NCBI GenBank assembly: GCA_951406725.2
Contig: OX597819.1
Coordinates: forward strand, 73,594,001-73,658,000
DNA length: 64,000 bases
From: Octopus vulgaris
Lineage: Eukaryota
Reading direction: 5' to 3'
Position numbers and translations under genes: made by a program. Each line of letters opens with the position of its first letter. Position 1 is the first letter of the stretch. Positions 11,101 through 54,400 of this stretch are shown one piece after another. Below the pieces are notes generated by a model. The model was given only the letters and a program-made list of their open reading frames with translations, was not told the origin of the DNA and ran no database searches.

Positions 11101-14100
11101 ATTCACTTGTAGTCTTCTAGGAGCTGAAGGGAAGTTGTCCAGAAATGTGAAATGACATTCAAGATGGGGACATATTTGTCGTCTGAATCGATTGGCACAG
11201 ACCATGTATGTGAACATCATCATCATCATCATTTAACGCCTGCTTTCCATGCTGGCATGGGTTGGATGGTTTGACTGAAAACTGGTAAGCCAAGGAGCCA
11301 TACCAGGTTCCAATCTGATTTGGCAAGGTTTCTACAGCTGGATGCCCTTCCTAATGCCAACCACTCCAAGAATGCTGTGGGTATTTTTATGTGCCACTGG
11401 CATGGGTGCCATTGATCTGACACCAGCATCGGCCATGACTACAGTCTCACTTGGCTTGACAGATCTACACAAACATGGTATATTGCCAAAAGTCTTGGTC
11501 ACCTGTCACTGTGAGGCCAAACTGCTTCCATGAGGCCAAACTGCCTTCGTGAAGCCAAACTGCCTCCATGACGCCAAACTGCCTTCGTGAGGCCGAACTG
11601 CCTTTGTGAGGCCAAACTGCCTTCGTAAAGCCAAAGTGCCTCTGTGAAGTCAAACTGCCTTCATGAAACCAAACTGCCTCCATGAGGCCAAACTGCCTCC
11701 ATGAGGCCAAACTGCCTTCATAAGACCAAACTGCCTTCATGAGGCCAAACTGTCTTCATGAGTCCAAATTGCCTTTGGGAAGCCAAACTGCTTCTGTGAG
11801 ACCAAACTGTCTTCGTGAAGTCAAACTGCTTCCGTAAGGCCAAACTGCCTTTGTGAAGCCAAACTGCATCTGTGAGGCCTTACTGCCTCTGTAATAGTAT
11901 GTTGAAAATTAATTCAATGCATACAGTAGAAACAGCTTTGAATTAAAATAGGCATCTGTGTATCATATCTAATATATGTACACCTTTGACAGACATCTTT
12001 CATAGGAAGTTAATTAGAAAATAGATTCTTGGTTAATTAGTATTTCTAATAATGCCAATGTATATAGCAACAGTTGACATCACTAAAGATATCACACCTC
12101 AAATTTGGCATCCCTGCTCAAAAAACTACAAGAATACTACATGGTAGATGTAAGGTACTAGCAAGAAAAATTATGATATTCTGAACATGATCCAAGCTGC
12201 CATACTCACTCATGAGAATTTATAAAAAAAAACAACAGCATACAACATTTTTTTGTTACTTTCATATGAAAGTGACCCTTATTTCAAAGCCTTTATTGGA
12301 CTCCTTTACTTAGAAAACACAAAATTAGCATAAGTTTTTAGGTTCATTAGAAACCAATGTATATTTATTTATAGTGGTGGTCACTTTGAAAACTCAAAAT
12401 GGTAGCCATGCAGGTGTCTTTACCAAAGCCAGCCTTAATTTTTAGATTCTCCATTCTCTAATGATTCTAGAAATGTACAGGCTTATTAATTGATGCCCAA
12501 AACTTCTGAAGCTGACTATAAGTAAAATTCTTTATATATTGGAGTGAAATTTCACAAAACCATTGCAAGTTAACATAACATGTAGATCCTATGTATATAA
12601 CCAAGTCTCAGCTTTTTGAGGAATTCTAAAACCTTGTATTATTTCACTAATCATGTCCGTTGATCCTTTATGATATAAAATGACACACACACACACACAC
12701 ACACGCACACACTGGTTGTGTGACTATGGCATCATTGAACCACATACTACATACACTTAAGCCTTGTCACAGCTGCTGTGTAGTAACCCACATCCTTGTC
12801 CCCATATAAGTGTTTAGCTGGTTATTGCATGAATTGAAGTGTTTAGCAGTCAGAATGACATTTAAATGTAAGAAACGTTTATAAAAACTCTCCACACTCC
12901 ATCACTTGGGTTAGATTAATTAATCAGAAATAGTTGACTTGTGCCTAGCATAGAAAACAATGTAAAACATTTTAAAAAATGGATAAAATATAAAGATTAG
13001 TTGAGTCTTTTTTTGTTTTTCAAACAACTTCTTTAACTCTTTAGCATTTAAACTGATCAAAATAATCTACCTCTCCATCATTGAATCTTAAAGCCATAAG
13101 ATAATGCATGAATAATTCAAAACAATGTGAATAAAAATGCATTACATTTGACAGAATAACCTGAATGCTAAAGAGTGAAAGACTTTTCCCTTGCACCATG
13201 TGAACCAATTTACCTTGATCTAGAACTATGCAATGAGTTATGAACCATTGTAGAAATTGCTTTAAGCTGTCGTACATAGGCTGTAAGCTATTTTAGAAAT
13301 AGCTTACAAAAAAAACCTGTTTATTAATCGTATTTGTTTTTAACTATTCATTAGGTCTTATTGTAATTTGCCTCTGTCTCCTCCCATGTCTACAATCAGA
13401 TTTCCCATGCTAATACATCTGGAAATATTTGTATTGAAGCAGCTGTGTTTTATATAATCCAGCTGCTACCAACTGACCTGTGAAATAGAGTTTAAACTTG
13501 TTACACGTACAAACTGGTCCAAGCAGTAGTGTTATTATGGACATTGTCCAACAGCTCTGAATGTATCTCCTGTAGTGAAATATTAATTAACTACTAAGGT
13601 TTTCAAATGAATGATATTAGACATTCTAAGCACAAAATTGATTCAATTAAATCTAAGTGATTAATTAAGTTGTGGAGTTGAAAGACTACAATTAAAAATA
13701 TCAAGAATAATTTATTGTATCTAATTCATTTTTAATGGCTGAACTCAAAGTAGAAAAATTATAAATAACAAGGTAAATATTGAGTGAAACACATTTTGTA
13801 TAGAAAAAGTCAAGGGCTGTCCATGACTTCAACTCAGTATTATTATTTATAGCCTTGTCTACTTGAAGTTCAACCATTAAATACAAATTAGTTCTTGTTC
13901 TCTCAAAGTTTCTAAATTTTGATGATACAAACAACTTCCATTTATTGTATTTAATTTAAGAAGCTGGAGTGGCAGGTATTCTGTGGAATTACAGATAAGG
14001 CAGTTTACTCGGCTGACAAAATAGAAAGGCAGTCGAAATCTTGAGGCTGAGTCTGTTGCTTTTTTGTAACTCAAACTGATACTTGTAATATTTCATACCA

Positions 14101-34500: not shown

Positions 34501-37500
34501 TGTGCTTAAAAATGTGTTTATATTCTTGAATGTGATAAAGTGTAGAATTAGATTATTATCCTGGGTCCAACTTCAGTGTTGCTGCCTGGATTTGAAAAAC
34601 AGGGCACATTCCCCCCCCCCCCCCGTATTTTGTGATTTGGGGGGATTTTTGAAAAACAAGGGAGAATTTGTGACAGTGTTCAGTGAACAGATTATACACA
34701 CTACTTGGTAGTGGCTAAAACACGAACTGATCAAGTTTATGTATAAATTTCCTTTTTATATGTTTGTTTCTTTTTACACAATATTAAAACAATGGCGAAA
34801 AATTTTCTGAAGAGCAGACCCCCCCCCCACTAATTTTATCTACGAGCTGCCACTGGTTCTTGGTGCTTTTTATGTGGCACCAACACCAGTGCTTATTAAC
34901 TAAGAAAAAAAAATGTGTAAGACTCTGCAATGGTCAGGGGACTTCTACTCCATTTAATAGGAATAGAAGAAAATAAAAGATTAAAATAAATTGACATGAT
35001 ATTTATGAAAAAGGGTCATCTAAGTTGTTATTAGTTGTTATTATGAGGAACCCACAGAAAAGTGGGACAGTAAGCCAAGGAGGATTCCAACAGATCAGCC
35101 AAGCATAAGTCTGGAGTAGAGTTGCTCATATACAAAGTAGAGTGGGTTGCTCTCACGAAATGGTTAAGCATTTTTAATACTGGTGTAAACTGTCACATTT
35201 TGACGGGTTACCTGAAACACACCAGGGATCCGGTTGTATGAAAGGAACATGGCAGGCACTATTTCATTGGCACCATTTTAAGTGTATCCATAATCATTGA
35301 ACCAATTACTTCTGTGCCACTTTTCTGCTCATGCATGATTGCTGAAGCTATTTAAAACCAATATCATTATTACAATTTTAATGGTCATCATCATGTGACA
35401 TCTGCTCTCCTTGCTAGTTTATGACCAGAAAGAGTAAAGGCACAAATACAAGTAGCTGAAATGGGGTTCTTCCAAAATATCTCTGGGCTAATATTACTCA
35501 TCAGGGTGCATAGCTTGGAGATCAGGGCCTCTCTCCAGGTTGAGTTGCTACTTCTCTGCTATGAGGGGTCACAGTCCAACGGACATGTGGTTAGAATGTT
35601 GCAGGAAAAAATTGCAAGACAGATTCTTGAAGCTGAACCAACCAACAGGAGACCTCGGTTGGTCATGTTTGGGAATCCAGCAGGAAAGAGTAATGACGGC
35701 TGCTTTTGATTGGCCCCTAGCAAGGAGGTGCCTGAGGACTCTATGCCTCATGACTAGGAAGGAGGTGCCTGAGGACTCTACGCCTCATGACTAGGAAGGA
35801 GGTGCCTGAGGACTCTACGCCTCATGACTAGGAAGGAGGTGCCTGAGGACTCTACGCCTCATGACTAGGAAGGAGGTGCCTGAGGACTCTATGCCTCATG
35901 ACCCCTCCCCCACAGGAATAGTGGACAGAGGAATGGCTGAATAAATGTTTTTCTTCAATGCTTGTTTGTTAGCACTTTTTTTAAATTTAATTTTTTCTTA
36001 CATTAGGTGATGTACGGAATGATCTGTATATAGTTTTGTCCCATGGAGAGTTCGAGCGAGGCAATAAGACATCGGCAAAGAATGTAGAAGTGACAATGAA
36101 AGCTTTTGATAGCATCGGAGAATCAATTCCTGTAAGTTAAGAAATCATTACCTTGTCTTATATTCTTGTCAGAGCATAAATAAAATGGCGATTTTCCCTT
36201 GTATTTGATTCAGCTGCATCTGTATTGTTTTCTATCAATAACAATACATTTTCATATCTATTTTTGCATGCTAGCTTGGATTAGATGTATATATTACCAA
36301 GGCATTGTTATATAGTTGGCTGCCTTTACAGTCACTAACCCTCATCTGTTTATCAGGTTAGGGATTTTTTTTCTTCACACACAAAATGAGTGGACAATTT
36401 GTTGACAGCAACACTGCTAAAGCTCCCAACATTTGCAGAGCATAAGTGTAAAAACATAGCTGCATACACATGTACACACCTATGCAAAACAGGCTGGCTT
36501 GATGGGCAGGGCAATACATATATATATATTTCTGTCTGTTTATACAGTGTAACTTCTATCCTGTAATGAAATGTGTGTAACATGGAATTAAAAACGGCAA
36601 ATTTTCCAACCTTTCTTTTAATATAAACTTACTCTGCAAATATGATTCTCCAGAACCCCCACCTAATATATATGCTTCATTGAAAATTAACATTCTGAGT
36701 GTGTGTGTGTGTGTGTGTGTGTGTATACACATATACAAACATGGGTGTGTGGTGAGTAGCTTGCTTACCGACCACATGGCTCTGGGTTCATTCCCACTGC
36801 ATGGCATCTTGGGTAAGTATCTCCTACTATAGCCTTGGGCTGACCAAAGCCTTGTGAGTGGATTTGGTTGATGGAAACTGAAAGAAGCCCATCATAGATG
36901 TGTGCGTGTGTCTGTTTTTGTCCCCCCACCATCACTTGACAACTGATGTTGGTGTGTTTACATCCTTGTAACTTAGCAGTTTGGCAATTGAAGCCAATAG
37001 AATAAGTACTAAGCTTACACAGAATAAGTCCTGGGGTCAGTTTATATATATATATATAAAACAAATTATTATCTCTATTTATTGTAATTCATGAGGATTG
37101 TGAATTTATGGCTGTTTTTTCCTTCCTTTTTTCTGCAGGATTGTATTTATCGAGGTATTGGTGAACCACCATCTTCATATTATCATTCCACCGTTTTCTA
37201 TCACTCCAATAACCCAAAATGGAAGGAAACAGTCAAGGTGAGTTATAACTTTTCTGACTAAAATATTCTCATCTATGGATTACCATCTTTGCACACCCAT
37301 ATTCCATCATTTACTAATATTCTGTATTTTTTCTCCTCAGAAACTCCCCACCACCACCACCAATACCATCTTTCCTTCGTCTTTTCTGCCATTGATACAA
37401 TGGTTTTGGTTCCCCCAATCCTATTGGTGTAAATCTAAATGCTGTAAATTTGTTTTTTTATATATAAGTTACACACTCTCCACTCCCGATCTGCTCTTAT

Positions 37501-40500: not shown

Positions 40501-43500
40501 AAGAAAAAATAGGTGGCAACTGGAGAGATTAGATAGGGTTGAGGGGTGACAAGTTATGCAGATGAGTCTGAAAATAGGGAGTGGAGATAGCTGATAGAGC
40601 AGAAACGGGGGGTGAGTTGGGGTGAAGAGTTGCAGAATAGACAGTATTTGTCTATCTCATATATAGTGTGTGTGTGTGGGGGGGGGGGTCTGTTCTGAAG
40701 CTGTGACGATGCTGCTGTTGATGATTTGCAAATTAATGTTTTTGAATCATGTTTTTGAAAGAGAAAAGTGGGCGGGGTGCGGTGGGGGTTTGGCTCTCTT
40801 GACTAATTCAGAGTTACTCCTGAACTGTTGCAATTTATGCTATAGATGTTATAAATTGAACTTCAATTGATGTCTGCCTGAACTAAAGAGGACTGTCTGA
40901 GCCCTTCCCACCCGGTTTCAGTTTAGATAAGATGGGTTTGCATTTACTGAGGCCCATGATTGTTCCTCTCTGCTGAGTGCAAAGAGTGAACCTGTTTTCT
41001 GAATACCCCAGGAGTTGATTGAGTTACCCAACTTCCAACTTGGGTAGTTTTCATGTAAGCATGGACGGGTATAACTGCTGGGAAGGAAGGTTGTTTATAT
41101 GATGTAGTGAGCCCTTGGTAGTTTTGGTTCACTACATCTCTCTCTCCTTCCTCCCCAAAAGCATTTCTTTCGGTTCTGCTTAAAAGTTTGTCTTCGTTTG
41201 ATGTCCTTTATTGGTAATTCTTGCTGTTTTGAGGTATTCTTAAGAAATTCAATCATCCTAACATTGTCTGTGTAACAAAATAACATTACTTTTTCTCTCT
41301 GTTACAGTGTGATACCCTTGTAAATTTAACCTGCATGGATTATTTAAATCTCCCACAAAGTCCTTCGGAAACCTCTCTTTCATCTGTGTCAGCCATCTAC
41401 CAACGGAATTCCAGAGACACTTTGACCATCAGTTCCTGCCTTTGTTCCACAAAGTTTACACAAAACAGTAATATAGAACTTTACCTTTTTTTCTAACATT
41501 GTATTTATTTATTCTGTGAAGTTTCCAAGAGTGGACCTTGGAAGACTCCCTCCTTTGGTGAATTTTTTTTTGTTAGAATTTATACCATCATTTTTACTGC
41601 TTACATGCTTCTATTTATGTAACCCCACATTGTACTGTCCTGTACCAACCCTAATGTTTTTCGTAAGCCCTTAGTGGTAAATAAAAGAAGCATTATTGTT
41701 GTTTTTTGTCTGTGCTAATGACATTGTGGGAGGGTTGGGGTAGCCCAGTCAGCAAGTCTGTGCAGCAGGAGATGACTAAATTCAGTTTCTATGACTTTTT
41801 TATATTATCTATTTATTTTGTAGCTTAAATCAGTGATTTCTAAAGTGGGTGGTGGAAAGATCCAGTTGGGGTGGGGGGCATTGAAGAAAAATGGGGTAAC
41901 CAAAATGGGGCAATGGATGTAAAAAAAAAAACAATAACAAATTAATTAGGTTAAGTTTTCATTGTGAAACACTGTTGTTTTGAATTTGCTGCAGAAAATG
42001 GTTTATGTCTGTGATGGTGAGTGGAGGGGGTGGTTGGAATGTGGCCTTAGAACCAAGGGGGCGGCAGCCTGAAAATGTTTGGTAACCACTGGCTTAAATT
42101 ATCTTGTTCTTATTGTAAGCATATTATTCTAAAAATCAGGACAGGTGCTGGCATGGCAGTGTGGCTAGGGATCTTGCTTCCCAACCACATGGCTCCAGGT
42201 TCCATCCCACTGCATGGCAGCTTAGGCAAGTGTTTTTTTTTTATGGCAATGTGGTTAAGAATTTTGCTTCCCAACCACACGACTCCAGGTTCAGTCCCAC
42301 TGCATGACAGCTTGGGCAAGTGTTTTTTTTTTTTAATCAGTATTGTAGCCCTGGACTACCTTATGAATGTATTTAGTAGACAAAAACTGAAATTTGCAAT
42401 CTGGGTGCTAGGTTCATTCTCGCTTTGTGGAATCCTGTGTAAATGTTATTTTCCACACCTTCAGACCAATCCATATCTTGGAAGTGAAACTGGGTAGATG
42501 GAAACTGTATGGAAACCTATTGAATGGATTGTAATTAAATGTCCGTTTTCCATGCTGACACATGGTTTTACAGGAGGTGGCAAGGCCAGAGAGCTGCACT
42601 AGGCTCCAATGTCTACTTTGGAACAGTTTCTATGGCTGGATACTTTTCCTAATGCCAACAACTTTACAGAGTGTACTGGTGATTTTCATATGGCACCAGT
42701 ATGGTGGGTGGGGTTGTTATGTAGCACCAGCACCACTACTCGATGCAAGGTTGTCAAGTAGCATGCAAAACAAGGGGCTTTCTACTAAGAGAAGGAGAGG
42801 AATCAAGAGAAGTGGCTGTATCTGCTTGAGAATTATGTTAAGGGTTCACATGCCCCTTTCTTGATGACCCTAATGTTGTTATATTGAAGCCGTTGAATAT
42901 GGTGAAATAATTTGTCGTTTCATTTCTTTGTTTGTTTTTTTTTTAATTTGCAGAAGATCTCCTTGATATATTGCAATGGCGAATGAAAACTGACAAAATT
43001 GAACAAAGTTTGGAGAAGCTGATGAGTATTAATGGAAGAGATATTGTCAGGGTAAGCAGAGAGCTTTTCTGTAAAAGTTTTCTTTTTAAGATATTTCTCA
43101 GTTGTCAGAGCATTTTGTAAAGCATCACAGCTCCAAACATACACATCACATGACCATACCAGTGCAGTTGTTTCTCTCGCACACTACATCTGATGCCTCT
43201 TCTGCCCAAATATTCTCTCAAGATATGCTCTGTCATACATGCACACTGACATTGCACATCCAGTGAAGCATACTAGCTTCATTTCTTTCAAGCCTTCGCA
43301 TGTCCTCTGCATTCACAGCTCAAGTTTCGTTGCCATGTAGCATGGCTGTTGACACACGGGCACCATACAGTCTGCCTTTTATTCTGAGAGAAAGGGCCTT
43401 TGTTGCCAACAAAGGTAGAAACTCTCTGAACTTTACCCAGCCTATTCTTATTCTAGCAGCTATACTCATAGAGCATCCACCCCCACTACTAACCAAGTCA

Positions 43501-47300: not shown

Positions 47301-49695
47301 GGCTGATGCCAGTGTAGCATAACTGGCTCATTAAAAGCACCCTTCAATCATTGGGCGACATGCTGTGCTTGTGAAGACTTGTCGAACTGAGTGAAATTGT
47401 AGTCATGGCCGATGCCAGTGCTGCCTGACAGGCACCTGTACTGGTGGCATATAAAGAGCACTGTTTGAGCGTTGGGCCTCATGGAGGCAGTGACAGGTGA
47501 CCAAGACCTTTGGCGATATACCGGGCTAGTGTAGACCTGTCAAGCGAAGTGAGACCATAGTGGTTGGCATTAGGAAGGGCATCCAGCTGTAGAAACCTTA
47601 CCAAATCAGATCAGGACCTATTGCAGCCCCCTGGCTTACCAGTTTTCAGTCAAACCGTCCAACCCATGCCAGCATGGAAAGCAGTCATTAATTGAGGATG
47701 ATGATGATGATATATATGTATGTGTTTGTGTGTCCCCTTGTTCTGACATCATGTGATGGCTGTAAATGAACATCATTCATGCAAATGATTTTGTTAGTTT
47801 CCAGTTTCCTTGGAAAACTTGTGAGGTCATGATGGGGAAACGACACCTTACTGAGAAACAGGTGAGGCTTGGTGACAGGAAGGACATTAAAGAATATAAG
47901 TTTTCCTGTCAACACTTTTGTTGCTAGTTATTAAGTACATCTTGTGTCTACAGTGTTTTAAAGTTAGTTTGAATACAAGGTTATTTACAGAATGTAAAAT
48001 GCTAACTTTTCTGACATCTAAACACATACAGCTTGCTAAACACTACAAAATAAAATTTTCTTGCAAGTTACTTGGCAACCCTGCTGGTGCTACATGAAAA
48101 GCCCTCAGCACACAATGTAAAATGGTTAGCATTAGGATAGGCATCCAGCTGTAGAAACCATGTCAAAACAGACAACCGGAGCCTGGTGCAGCTCTCCGGC
48201 CTTGCCAGCTCCTGTCAAAGTGTCCAACCCATACCAGCAAGTTCAGTACAACTGCTTTGACACTGAGAATCGAAATATCCAGAACAAATGCTACAAAGAA
48301 TTTCATCTGATGCTCTATTTCAATATTCAACCACATTGGGGTGGACTTCATTATATTGACTTTGGGAGGGGGAAGTCAAAGATCACTTCAGCAAGATTTC
48401 AACTCAGAATACAAAGAACTGGAACAAATACCATAAACCATTTTAACCGATGCTTTAACAATTCTGCCAATTTCTTGTCTTAAAATTACTAATCTTCTCT
48501 TATTCTAGAGATCATCTTTGTTAAAATTTCTCAACAATTTCTATTTTTTAGGTGTTTAATTACTTGTTCCAGTTTATTGTCCAGTCCAAACTGTTATTCA
48601 ACAGGTAATTAATTAATATCTATATTTAATGTCAGATTATTATTGTTCTAACAGTAAAGAGTATTACTTAGGAACAAAAATTATGCAAATATATTTTATT
48701 TGCCATCTGTTTATTCTCTAGCTGACTCCCCTCATGGTTCCACTGTCCCCCCACCACAATCTTCTGATATTCACCATTGGTCATGTCTCTACCCTTGTTC
48801 ACCATTCACTACACTCACCTCTACCTCTACCCACTTGTCATGCTCCTTTCACATTCCCATGAACTTATCCAGCTGGCCACCCTGTCTGAACCTCTGCTCC
48901 ACTTCCCTTATATTCACCTTGTACCTTGAGGGTACACCCTGACACATTATCACCACCACCATTTTCCCCCTTTCCAGCTGGGGTAACCATGTACTTCCCC
49001 AACAGCAAGACACTTTTTCCAGCCTCCCTCGTCATGTGGCACAAAGCCACCTTCTTCGATAATGCCACCCCATTCCACCAATGGTTCTTATAATGTGAGT
49101 TACTTGGTGACCTCACAAGTGCTGGTACCATGCAAAAAGCACTCTCAAAGTGGTTGGCATTAGGAAGGGCATCCAGCTGTAGAAATTATGTCAAAGAGAC
49201 ATTGGAACCAATTAGATATATTTGTTGGAATAACTGATTTGGACAGATATGTCTAATTATGGGAAATGAGGAAATTCACATGTGTGACCAAAAATTGTCT
49301 GTTTGTCTTTGTCTGTCTGTCTCTATGTCTGTCTATTTAAGTCTGTCTTATTCAATAAAAAATAAAAGTCAAATATTGAGTTCTATTTCTCCTGTTGGTT
49401 CTACCAAATTTGTGTGTTTGTGTATCTTTATTTATTGGGATGGGGGTGTTGGGTAGTTGCATGAAGTAGTGATGGAAAATCTGCAAAGGTTAGACCGGTT
49501 CAAAATATGTTTGCAACAAATTTGAACCCGTACAGATTTTTTCCTGCAGTTTTCTGTTGAGAGAAAAGTCTTGTTTGAGATAAAATGGGTTTGAACACTA
49601 TAGTCAGCTCAGAGCACCCTCTTTTCTACTGGTGAATGCATTTTGAATTCTTTAGTTCTTCCTAATCTCAGATACCAAGAGAGTTACCACTCTTG

Positions 49696-49728
<33 letters not shown>

Positions 49729-51357
49729 CACAAATATTCTATAATTATAATCAGGGATCAGCTAATTGCTTCGCCATGCACTGAACTTAGAAATAGGAGT
49801 TAAAATGCCTTTTATGCTACCATGAAGATCTCCCAGACAGTAACACACTTTTTTACGTAAGCAAAAAGAAAAAATAATGAATCCATATGACTCAGATTAA
49901 CTACATACGCGTTTCAAGATTAAAGTAAAGTTATATTTACTCACTTATTTCCCATCTTCAGTGTAGCATTTCGAGATATAAATTTGAGAGTGTTTAGGAT
50001 TAAATGTGTACGCGAACAAGTGCCATCATATAACTGACATTCAACCAACACTTTCAAAAACATACAGCTGAATGTGAACGCATATTTATCCTCAATACCC
50101 ATATGTGTGTTATAAATAATCCTGCAGAAATTGCAGTTTTCGATCAGGGAATAAATTATATTTCAATAATAATAATAAAAGGGTAAAATTAATTATTTAA
50201 TAATTAATAATTTTACCAAGTAGTTTGGTTCATTAAAATAACCTTTTTAGGTAAAATCATACAAATATTTTATAATTATAAACATAATTATAATCAGGGG
50301 TCAGCTAATTGCTTCACCACACACCAAACTTAGAAATAGGAGTTAAAATGCCTTTTATGCTACCATGAAGATCTCCCAGACAGTAACACACACACACACA
50401 CACATAACATTCAGTTGAATTAGATACTTAAATTGAGGCACCTTGTCAGGTCAGAGTAACATGCACACCAGGGATGTGCCACCAAGGCAGGCAAGGTAGG
50501 CGGTGCCTACTTTGAATAAAATAGATCGATAGCAACATTTTCCTTTTATGGCAAAATATGCACCTAATTCAATAAAATTATGAAGGTTATTCTGATTATT
50601 ATGCATAAAACGCAAATTTAATTTTTTTTGTAGATTAAGTATGCATAATTTGCCCCTGCCTTTCAATCTCCGTATTTAAGCTATGCATAGTAATGCTGTA
50701 GTACACGTGCTGTGTACATTCCTACTTTACGTGCTATAAAGGCAGAAGTAAATCTGCCTTCAACTCAGTCACGTAGCTGTGTTTCGCTTATTTTTTGTCT
50801 TTTGCTACGTAAACATCACCAGCTGCCTACCCTGGGTAATTACTGTCAGCACATGCTTCATGTACACCCAAGCAATATCAAATGAATATCAAACTCTATG
50901 CAGAAGTGTTTGCACTTGATAGTCTTGCAGTGTGTGCAGATAACACGATCCAACTTGGTGAAGAGATCCCCTCTTGGTTGTTCAGACATGTACTTTATAT
51001 AAAAATACTTTCTCTAATATTTCCAAAGTGCAGATTACAGGGTAGGTGAATAAAATATGATTGAGTAGCAGTAGAGGTACAGCTGTCAATTCATTACAGC
51101 CGTTTCAAGCGACTCCTTTAATTGATTAATGAAAACATTACATCATTGCAAAGAAACCATTTTTGTCAGATGATCGCAAAGACTTCAAACACAAAGGACC
51201 AACCAACTGCTTTAACATATTCATGTCACCAAACTGTTTGAAGTCTATGCAGTCATCTGACGAAAATGTTTTCTTTGCAATGATGCTTTCATTAATTAAT
51301 TAAAGGAGTTGCTTGAAATGGCTGTAATGAATTGACACCTGTACATCTTTGCTACTC

Positions 51358-51418
<61 letters not shown>

Positions 51419-54400
51419 GAAATGAAGAAAATGCTGACAAAATAATTTAAGTAATTTAATTAGGTGAAAGTTCTTTTTACTGGTTGCGCATTTGTTATGC
51501 TTATCAAAAGATGTTTTTTTAAGAGTGATAGAGTTCCTTTCTGATAGATTTTTTCCTCTTATCTGGAAAGGAACTCTATCTCTCTTAAAAAAACATCTTT
51601 TGATAAGCATAACAAATGCGCAACCGGTAAAAAGAACTTTCACCTAATTAAATTACTTAAATTACTTAAATTATTTTGTCAGCATTTTCTTCATTTCCTT
51701 TTTTATATATCACAACTCGTGTTCCACATCTCCTTTTTTAAATATATATATATATATATATATAGAAATATGTACTTGGTTATGTTAGTCACTGTATTGA
51801 CCAGACTGTTAGATGTTGCTATAGACTGCTGATCACAGTGCGCTTTGTTACATTATAGTTGCTTTTGAATAATGCTACCCCACTAGCTAGGCAAACAGGG
51901 TATATAAATATATATATATATGGACAGCAAAAGCGAGATAGACTGAGGAAAATGTGGAGGGGACAGGCGGAAGATGAGACTGGGAGGGTGTGCTTGAGAA
52001 GGGAGGATGCCCAAAACCAGGCAAGATGGCGAGATGATGTGAGGGCAGTTGCTATGGCATTGAGATAGATCCAACTACCTCTATTAATAGGGACAAAACC
52101 TGGATTTAAAATGATTGATGATGACGATCAGTGTTTTTGTTTGTGTATCAAGATGTTTGTACATCAAGTGATTGTTGGTTGTGATTATTTATTACTGTAT
52201 GACTTAGTGTATGGAATACTGTTTCATGTTGACAATAAATTTATGCATTGTTTAAAAACAAAATGCCTTTCTTTTATTTCAGAGCATACACTGTTGAAAG
52301 ATCTGATGAATTCCCTCAACTCATATATTTAGTTTTCGAAAAAATGGGGTACCTTGTATCGTTAAATCAAGATAACTTGTCAAGTTGTCAGGTAATGTCA
52401 ACGTTTTATTTATATCAAATTTCTCATTGATTGATTGTGCACATATAGTAATACTTCATCATCATCATTTAACATTCATTGTCCATGCTGGCATGGGTTG
52501 GACAGTTTGACTGGGCTGGCATACTGGAAGGCTACACCAGACTCCAGTCTGATTTGGTATGGTTTTCTATGGCTGGATGCTCTTCTTAATGCCAATCACT
52601 CTGAGAGTGTAATGGCTGCTTTTACATGCCACCAGCATGAGTGCCATTTGTGTGACACTGGTATCTGCCACGACTGTGATTTTGGTTGGCTTGATGGGTC
52701 TTCTTTTCAAGCATGACATAATGCCAAAAGTCTTGTGAGGCCCAACATTCGAAAGGTACTCTGATATTAATATTCTAACTATATAAAGCCATTTAGATAC
52801 GCACTTTACATATAGATATATACTTTTATTAGAACTGCAAAATTATCACAAAAACTGTTACTCAGAGTTTCATGTTCCTGTTCATCAGGTTTGTGTAATA
52901 TAACGTGATGTAATTCAAATACACAAGTAATTATTTAAATTTGATTGGGTCGTTAATTTTCAAAATATAATGGTGTAATATTCATTACTAGCTGGGTGTT
53001 TGGGGGCGGGGTTTGAACATTACCAGTAAGGTGTATATAAATATAAATATTATAATGAGATAAAGAACGAAACCTTGCTTAGAGCGTGATGTGTATGTTT
53101 GCGTGTTTATGCAAAACACATTTCTGATGCAGGGGTCTTGTAGTAGTGGGTAGGTGACAAACATGTAACCAAACAACTTCTTGACTCTCCATATTTGAGA
53201 AAAATAGTAAGAAAATAAATACATGTGAATAAGCAAATCTGACCAAAACAATTTTTGGTGTTTTACAAATCACCAACATGACTCTTCTGTTATGTAATTG
53301 TCATATATATATATGTGTGTGTGTTTGTGTGTGTGTTTGTGTGTGTGTGTGTTGTTATCGTTAGGCCTAGCTCGTCATAAAGTAAATACCACCATGACCG
53401 ATATCCAAACTACGATGGAAAAGGCTATCCATTGGATTTGGTTAAAAAGAGATGATGAGTGATGGCTAAAAGAATATTGAGCTTTATTTAATAACCAGTT
53501 GATCTAGCAAGTGGGGCCCCATATCAGTGATGGGGTAGTGCTGGTGTGCATTGATGCCGTCGAGAGGTAGGCACCGAAGCAGCATGCATTCTATCCTGAT
53601 GACCCCATATACTTGCTGGCTTCTGGTATGCGGAGTTCTTGAGTAGTAGCACTTGCATGTGCAAGTTGTTTGCAAAACATTTTATTATGATTAATGACAT
53701 TGAAAATATAAAAAAAAACGTGGCTAAGTAATTTAATGTGCTAATGATTTTAATGAATTAAGTTATAACATTGATGTGATACTTACTGTATACCTACTTT
53801 TGCACTGTGCCTTTGTATGTGTTATACGAATTTCCAAAAGGGTAATTGTTTTAATTCTTTTTTTTGTTTCTGTCTGTTTCAGATCTTACTGCTGAGCAAC
53901 ATCCCCAACACTTATAATTCCCTGTTAAAACTGCTGAGTAAGAAAGATGTGACAATATATGTTGTCAACATCATCAATTTTATGCCGAAAGAGCTCTCAG
54001 AGTCCCTGTTTAGCAAGAAATTAGAGTTCCTTCACGAAACTCTCAAAAGTGAACTAGTCACTGATAGAGGTAGGTATCATCATCGTCATCATCATCGTTT
54101 AAGTTCTGTTGTCCATGCTGGCACGGGTTGGCTGGTTTGACGAGAGCTGAAGAGCTGCACCAGGCTCCAGTCTGACTTGGCATGGTTTCTACAACTGGAT
54201 GTCCTTCCTAATGCCAACCACTTTACAGAGTGTGCTGGGTGCTTTTTATGTGGTACCACACAGGCACTTTACATGGCAGCGCCACAAGTGCTTTACACCA
54301 CCAGAGGCATCGGTCTTAACACATCTGCTGTTGAGGAAGGGTCATCTTTAAATATATAACTTCCTGTACACATCTTTTATCCCTTGCTTGTTTTAGCCAT

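Follow-up and report, generated by a model that had tools for sequence, protein, structure and literature searches.

The element and its host intron

The window, by which we mean the whole stretch of 64,000 nucleotides of Octopus vulgaris DNA analysed here, is the middle of a single DOCK3-like gene. When DOCK3 of Octopus bimaculoides was mapped onto it and only stretches of at least 70% identity were counted, 26 plus-strand stretches were found between 2252 and 63480, covering residues about 231-1110. The exon at 53883-54068 encodes 62 aa that agree at 100% with an O. bimaculoides protein annotated as dedicator of cytokinesis 3 and at 87% with one from Argonauta (2 hits among 129 candidates). 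A second exon in the window gives a Pfam DOCK-C2 match (E 5e-8). As exons lie on either side (from 48552 and from about 52283), the element described below sits in a 3.7-kb intron of this gene, and its ribozyme is therefore antisense to the pre-mRNA. The positions of all features are given in Table 1.

Table 1. Features of the element and its surroundings (positions in the window; RNA sense of the element is the minus strand)
Feature	Position	Strand	Remarks
Host intron of DOCK3-like gene	48605..52282	+	between exons 48552-48604 and 52283-52391
(TA)13 + C	49703..49729	.	host target microsatellite at the RNA-sense 3' end
Terminal repeat copy A	49730..49848	-	RNA-sense 3' end of unit; presumed start of reverse transcription
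16-mer	49814..49829	-	complementary at 14/16 to 49969-49954; second copy at 50357-50372
G-U-rich hairpin	49813..49848	-	11 bp, -9.1 kcal/mol, none on plus strand; also in copy B, 50356-50391
Unique body	49849..50260	-	412 nt, 27% G+C, no coding frame with homologues
Type I hammerhead, PLE-like	49901..49966	-	stem I 5-6 bp, CUGAAGA, extra U, long weak stem II, GAAA, ACGCGU
Distal extension of helix I around ribozyme (predicted)	49880..49985	-	from folding
Terminal repeat copy B	50261..50391	-	upstream partial unit, pseudo-LTR, with 12-nt local duplication
(AC)n tract	50386..50406	.	first six bases overlap the element's ACACAC end; microhomology, RNA-sense 5' junction

The repeat anatomy, the ribozyme motif, the junction sequences and the host context are read directly from the DNA. 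The element occupies 49730-50391 and is 662 nt long, i.e. 1.22 units of 543 nt. Its ends are repeated with 102 of 108 nt identical (94.4%; 49741-49848 against 50284-50391, E 1e-43) at a period of 543, and the partial tandem of about 543 bp (a 1.2-mer) claimed by the first-pass annotation is borne out by this alignment. In the distal part of the repeat, 49730-49753 aligns with 50261-50284 at a period of 531, because the right copy holds 12 extra nucleotides. These form a local duplication, and the alignment crosses it with one more substitution, so that the whole 119-nt block of copy A differs from copy B by 7 substitutions and the 12-nt indel. The 543-nt unit is non-coding, has a G+C content of 29% and contains a type I hammerhead. 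Repeat alignment and junction mapping thus give a partial tandem that forms a pseudo-LTR (pLTR), with the ribozyme upstream of the 3' end.

Both outer ends of the element lie in microsatellites, as the annotation had also noted: (TA)13 occupies 49703-49728, and the (AC)n tract begins at 50386. Read in the RNA sense, the 5' start GTGTGT merges with the (TG)n tract, and the 3' end passes into GT and then (AT)13; this 3' junction is uncertain by a few bases, as the terminal ACA of the element overlaps the CA step. The predicted ribozyme cut site is 176 nt from the 3' end and about 485 nt from the other end. No target-site duplication is resolvable at the (TA)n/(CA)n junctions. Judged from these sequences, the empty site would most simply have been a compound microsatellite of the form (TA)n(CA)n, microhomology of a few bases being present on each side. 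Insertion into a microsatellite is only moderately diagnostic here, because microsatellites are frequent in the window.

The absence of an open reading frame, likewise part of the earlier description, was confirmed. The longest stop-free frame in the element has 73 codons; all Pfam matches to it had E values of 0.34 or more, and two protein libraries yielded no homologue. Frame, Pfam and homologue searches of the element gave no reverse transcriptase (RT) or GIY-YIG frame, nor was there an RT or GIY-YIG match among the 150 longest of the 350 stop-free window frames of at least 55 aa. A tRNA-derived SINE with a hammerhead was also considered and rejected, since ARAGORN found no tRNA gene, and hence no tRNA-like head, in 49000-51000, although a decayed head could be missed. 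A second copy of the element was found neither within the 64-kb window nor in phage and plasmid collections, and five short element motifs gave no relevant match in the supplement of PMC8557442. A 17-nt pattern that occurs in 22 prokaryotic loci is a chance match, because roughly 69 would be expected by chance, more than were seen; the alignments extend over at most 17-29 nt. As copies were sought within the 64-kb window, the family status and the unit length rest on one locus.

Several other repeats were observed in the window. Dispersed families of 100-330 nt with 65-85% identity account for 262 self-matches (e.g. 49094-49209, 52452-52646 and 54079-54266) and are presumably octopus SINEs. 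A long imperfect palindrome at 51073-51348, with arms of 66 and 51 nt that are 90-91% complementary, ends at (TA)27 and looks to us like a fold-back or MITE-type element; a second one lies between TA tracts at 51406-51710 (arms of 102 and 57 nt, 96-97% complementary). Neither has another copy in the window. The purine-rich stretch at 51920-52130, which follows a TA tract and ends in GAT repeats, resembles what we take to be the 3' end of an RTE-type LINE. Minisatellites are present at 11511-11888 (19 nt x 20), 35717-35902 (37 nt x 5, 97% match) and 42153-42332 (90 nt x 2).

The hammerhead motif and the antisense 16-mer

In the minus-strand motif, the conserved CUGANGA, GAAA and NUH are present and helices I-III follow each other in type I order. 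Stem I pairs CUACA (49966-49962) with UGUAG (49905-49901) by 5 Watson-Crick pairs, to which one G-U pair is added. The core reads CUGAAGA at 49961-49955 and GAAA at 49915-49912, and an extra U at 49954 follows A9, standing between A9 and 10.1. The palindrome ACGCGU (49912-49907) comprises 15.2-16.2 and loop 3, and its self-duplex has a predicted energy of -7.5 kcal/mol. With the cleavage triplet GUA and A17 at 49906, the cut is predicted between 49906 and 49905. The 38-nt stem II region opens with GGGA and closes with UCUU. Thus the perfect 5-bp stem I, the intact core and ACGCGU stand as first annotated, whereas the extended stem II proved to be long but weak: its closure consists of two G-U wobbles, and the usual G10.1-C11.1 is replaced by G-U in both registers. 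A further CGCG-centred near-palindrome was seen at 50008-50017, about 100 nt upstream of the ribozyme's own (49895-49911), the two being alike at 13 of 17 nt.

According to PMC4209133, the ribozymes of metazoan Penelope-like elements (PLEs) have a nucleotide between 9 and 10.1, palindromic 15.2-16.2 plus loop 3, a conserved G10.1-C11.1, and helices I and II that are short and long, respectively; in vitro, the single motif gave no cleavage and dimers gave low cleavage, a dimer mechanism that is also summarised in PMC6155905. By analogy, the palindromic two-pair stem III found here should need a dimer for ribozyme action. The U of G10.1-U11.1 precedes G12 and therefore could be explained by CpG decay; it could equally be the natural U-before-GAAA variant of Hydra-clade PLEs, and because that variant is natural in many of them, the closing-pair U is not callable as damage.

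When the whole window was dinucleotide-shuffled 300 times, no motif arose that had a stem I of at least 5 Watson-Crick pairs together with a stem II of at least 4 pairs, these thresholds having been chosen after the motif was seen; a looser motif was reached in 8 of the 300. A hammerhead pattern search returned one match in the window against none in 100 shuffles, and 49966-49901 was the sole match in a relaxed scan of both strands of the window in which a U3-A8 core was allowed and helix III was optional. A loose hammerhead-like match on the minus strand at 23827-23765 (stem I of 4, stem II of 2) was set aside as lying at shuffle level (8/300). That the motif is a chance match in an unrelated duplicated repeat would agree with the Rfam result, as no hammerhead reached the gathering score anywhere in the window and the 27 weak matches up to E 10 in 49500-50600, most of them on the TA tract, included no hammerhead; it would also agree with a ribozyme folding energy no better than that of shuffles (z -0.05 and -0.87). 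However, the two shuffle series (0/300 and 0/100) did not reproduce the motif, and the extra U and the palindrome fit the published features of PLE ribozymes although the descriptor scan did not require them. We therefore regard a chance match as scarcely credible, and the motif adds a ribozyme missed by Rfam.

In the 106-nt local context (49880-49985), the ribozyme-competent fold has a predicted energy of -16.7 kcal/mol against a minimum of -17.0 kcal/mol, a gap of only 0.3. The motif might instead have been retained by the host for an action on the DOCK3-like transcript, as with the intronic hammerheads conserved in amniotes; its intronic position and intact core nucleotides would fit this. 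Yet it is antisense to the pre-mRNA, its stem III should need a dimer, its stem II is wobble-closed and the surrounding structure bears the marks of a mobile insertion; we consider a host function highly improbable.

The terminal repeat contains a 16-mer whose target is the 5' strand of ribozyme stem I plus the CUGAAGA core (predicted duplex, -16.7 kcal/mol). It can also sit inside a predicted G-U-rich hairpin that is formed on the minus strand only. Shuffles equalled the match in 1 of 1000 cases when the 22-nt 5' half of the ribozyme was the target and in 19 of 1000 when it was the whole ribozyme; in real stretches of the window the counts were 3/264 and 7/264, respectively. The significance of the complementarity is thus modest, at an honest level of 1-3%, for a test made post hoc. 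A second, plus-strand hammerhead in the repeat, suggested by the 16-mer, was discarded: it is without GAAA, and the plus strand does not fold there.

In folding predictions, transcripts starting at 49985 and ending at 49899-49870 form stem I with a probability of 0.84-0.97. In the transcript from 49985 to 49810, stem I falls to 0.01 and the antisense helix rises to 0.99, while transcripts from 49985 running beyond 49810 use other pairings and those from 50391 never form stem I. In the predicted circle, the 16-nt antisense helix has a probability of about 0.2 in one version and 0 in the other. The idea that the circle keeps the ribozyme off was dropped: stem I is at 0.004 in the native circle, and this does not speak for an off state, because 27 of 60 shuffled contexts also remain below 0.01.

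These observations bear on a bolder possibility, namely that the locus is the founding copy of an undescribed cephalopod family of circular-RNA retrozymes, with a 543-nt unit, a dimer-dependent PLE-type hammerhead and a 16-nt antisense off switch, and that the 1.22 units are the footprint of a PLE enzyme rounding the circle. The switch would be held in its hairpin, or would pair with the catalytic core once transcribed, in the manner of viroids and plant retrozymes. We regard this as quite unlikely. In most animal retrozymes the circle leaves the ribozyme free, unlike in plant retrozymes and viroids, according to PMC7229834; a conserved 16-mer blocker, if true, would be of interest for that reason.

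Origin of the element and its template

We read the locus, as the probable though not assured explanation, as one insertion of a non-autonomous PLE derivative of the animal non-LTR retrozyme kind, its unit measuring about 543 nt. Although genuine, it is an ordinary member of a known mobile-element class, PLE-linked hammerheads being reported in thousands from many animal genomes (PMC4209133). Several features support the PLE derivation. The motif exceeds chance and is the sole match of the relaxed scan; the extra nucleotide between 9 and 10.1, the palindrome spanning 15.2-16.2 and loop 3 and the 5-bp helix I are as described in PMC4209133. The pLTR-type partial tandem, the ribozyme near the 3' end and the microsatellite target are PLE features: PMC8557442 describes partial tandems with a truncated upstream copy, 3'-end ribozymes and (TA)n or (CA)n targeting for PLEs, and notes that insertion into microsatellites hides target-site duplications. 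Octopus possesses an autonomous, ribozyme-bearing PLE with (TA)n preference, Hydra-1_Obim, and dispersed solo monomers as well as units of 51-972 bp have been described for PLE-related retrozymes (bioRxiv 10.64898/2026.07.22.740005). On the other side, the window holds no second copy, the search with five short motifs tied the element to no named PLE (all three stems of the Hydra-1_Obim ribozyme are different), the highly conserved G10.1-C11.1 is G-U here, the target-site duplication is not resolvable, the predicted circle is not unusually stable and CpG loss is uneven.

We infer retrotransposition, a mobilising enzyme, cleavage and any circle from this anatomy. A source locus elsewhere would yield minus-sense RNA, either circular or longer than one unit. 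With its reverse transcriptase and GIY-YIG endonuclease, a PLE protein would nick the (TA)n(CA)n microsatellite in the intron, and cDNA would be primed 176 nt downstream of the ribozyme cut site. The enzyme would then read past the uncut ribozyme into the next unit, and synthesis would end after 1.22 units at the GTGTGT microhomology with the target. In the source RNA, GUA may be cut only if two copies pair via ACGCGU, perhaps with the help of protein; such dimer cleavage could free monomers that are then ligated into circles.

CpG content bears on the age of the insertion and on its template. The observed/expected ratio is 1.03 in the body, against 0.24 in the window and 0.09 in the left flank. 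Within the 108-nt block, three sites account for 5 of the 6 substitutions, all five of CpG type (C-to-T twice in one copy, G-to-A three times in the other), and the ancestor of the repeat was therefore also CpG-rich, unlike the host intron. As gene bodies are methylated in octopus (PMC9476566) and a ratio of 1.03 is expected of DNA newly arrived in such a gene body, the element looks like a fairly recent insertion, as judged from its composition. Loss is uneven, 5 of 6 CpGs being gone in the repeats while 8 survive in the body; a common loss rate is disfavoured with p from 0.014 to 0.17, depending on the starting number assumed. The DNA adjoining the element at 50420-50860 has a CpG ratio of 0.55 and a G+C-rich start, and is possibly another young insertion.

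CpG decay in the repeats while the body keeps its CpGs is also what one would expect if the 119-nt repeat were host DNA, doubled either as an exceptionally long target-site duplication or by a local event at a later time, and the insertion were the 412-nt body only; the repeat has no other match in the window, which agrees with this. Its ancestor, however, had 3 CpGs or more within 119 nt, in contrast to a ratio of 0.09 in the host flank, the microsatellites stand at the outer ends of both repeats and not at the ends of the body, and the repeat carries the 16-mer complementary to the ribozyme. We thus hold a host duplication to be very unlikely.

The one serious rival, unlikely as it is in our estimate, differs from the PLE derivative only in whether the 543-nt unit is real. 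It holds that two 5'-truncated pieces of an autonomous PLE were joined by a template jump, a 3' end of 531-543 nt being preceded by one of 120-131 nt; the 543-nt period would then reflect only the chance point at which the enzyme halted, with neither a 543-nt unit nor a circle behind it. High 5' truncation and a truncated upstream copy are the normal PLE insertion pattern in PMC8557442, most PLE-type ribozymes are single motifs in truncated PLEs according to PMC4209133, uncleaved RNA was the dominant substrate in vitro (PMC11167929), and two templates would account for the differing repeats. Against it, no trace of a coding tail was found in the upstream part of the body by Pfam and homologue searches with the 73-codon frame, which counts for little if the 3' untranslated region is long or the frame has decayed.

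Returning to the non-autonomous PLE derivative, the question is what was copied. Neither end of the element coincides with the cleavage site, and the DNA preserves the ribozyme junction; the template was therefore uncut or re-ligated there. Circles have been proposed as templates for more-than-unit cDNA (PMC4209133, PMC7229834), and the one PLE assayed in vitro used uncleaved RNA as its dominant substrate (PMC11167929). An uncleaved linear tandem transcript accounts for the anatomy as well as a circle does. A single circular template would give repeats identical at birth; the CpG-type differences fit such repeats decaying after insertion, while the uneven CpG loss weakly favours repeats that already differed at insertion, as would be expected from a linear multimer or a template jump. 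The predicted circle, folded from a copy that has decayed, has 64-65% of its bases paired, at z -1.05 (11/60 shuffles as good) in one version and z -1.23 (7/60) in the other. On balance we lean slightly towards a linear uncleaved multimer. The first-pass annotation had proposed a copy reverse-transcribed from a circular or oligomeric self-cleaving RNA. Its assignment to the non-coding hammerhead partial tandems of the PLE-pLTR/non-LTR retrozyme kind fares well, and the element was most likely made by reverse transcription; the circular template fares less well, given ends off the cleavage site, differing repeats and a circle that folds no better than shuffles.

With a single ribozyme and a weak stem II, the locus is unable to release a monomer by self-cleavage. 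The present copy is most likely an inert dead end, because it has one ribozyme, a wobble-closed stem II and an orientation antisense to the host transcript.

Relation to known retrozymes and PLEs

The class, its anatomy and the PLE link are already published, and with PLE-linked hammerheads numbering in the thousands the class is ordinary. The element is a probable new non-autonomous PLE-type family in octopus; no description of it was found in open-access text, and repeat libraries may already list it. Such a family would extend the 2026 retrozyme-PLE survey, because that survey covered no mollusc. Its use would be as a probe of the template of PLE partial tandems, a circle or an uncleaved linear multimer. 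As a short non-coding family with copies of 1.x units, it would allow this question to be addressed with genome sequence only: a shared junction together with repeats that were identical at birth would indicate a single continuous template, and how the enzyme starts would show in whether the 3' ends are fixed or scattered. Hammerheads have been noted in cephalopods before, 235 Rfam matches being reported in the giant squid (PMC6962438), and Penelope elements are reported as abundant in coleoids (PMC8967140).

Compared with the animal non-LTR retrozymes described in PMC7229834 and bioRxiv 10.64898/2026.07.22.740005, the octopus element is alike in being non-coding, in its low G+C content, in its type I hammerhead, in its head-to-tail repeat and in having no LTR features; solo monomers are described among them, and axolotl HHR_Amex1 has a similarly weak palindromic stem III. 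It differs in its PLE-type extra nucleotide and 38-nt helix II region, and its ribozyme is nearer to the dimer-dependent PLE-type motifs, weak in vitro, than to the canonical ribozymes of invertebrate retrozymes proven to form circles. The circles of coral, mussel and axolotl measure 170-400 nt; the octopus unit of 543 nt is longer, though within the 51-972 bp predicted in the 2026 survey. That preprint defines an active retrozyme by at least 2 units, each with a complete ribozyme; with 1.22 units and one ribozyme, the octopus locus falls outside this definition and belongs with the copies that the preprint calls solo monomers, cleavage having been reported there in 1 of 9 dimers tested. Unit sequence that is complementary to the ribozyme and could block it also occurs in plant LTR retrozymes and hammerhead viroids, as summarised in PMC7229834, but these carry type III ribozymes, have LTRs with PBS and PPT, are high in G+C and form strongly self-paired circles. 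In comparison, the octopus complement is 16 nt long, of modest significance and subject to a competing local hairpin.

The likeness to the pseudo-LTRs of EN+ PLEs that carry minimal or palindromic hammerheads (PMC4209133; PMC8557442; PMC11167929) extends to the partial tandem with a truncated upstream copy, the microsatellite target, the sense-orientation ribozyme upstream of the 3' end, the extra nucleotide and the palindromic stem III. The place of an AUG, formed where stem II begins, resembles that of the start codon in the anole Poseidon element, although this AUG meets a stop after four codons, unlike in these elements. The octopus copy further differs in being without an RT or GIY-YIG frame and in having G10.1-U11.1 in place of G-C; neither the inverted 5' piece nor the 30-40-nt tail of EN+ PLEs is identifiable from one octopus copy.

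The nearest named comparison is Hydra-1_Obim, an autonomous Hydra-clade PLE of O. bimaculoides with a hammerhead and (TA)n preference (PMC8557442 supplement). It shares with the octopus element the host genus, the (TA)n preference and a type I hammerhead near the 3' end, and several Hydra-clade ribozymes in that supplement have U before GAAA, as here. It differs in stems I, II and III and in the cleavage triplet, and Hydra-clade stem III has 3-4 bp as against the two-pair palindrome of the octopus element. Because the stems differ, Hydra-1_Obim is neither its parent nor a member of the same family; by analogy, it exemplifies the kind of enzyme that could move the octopus element.
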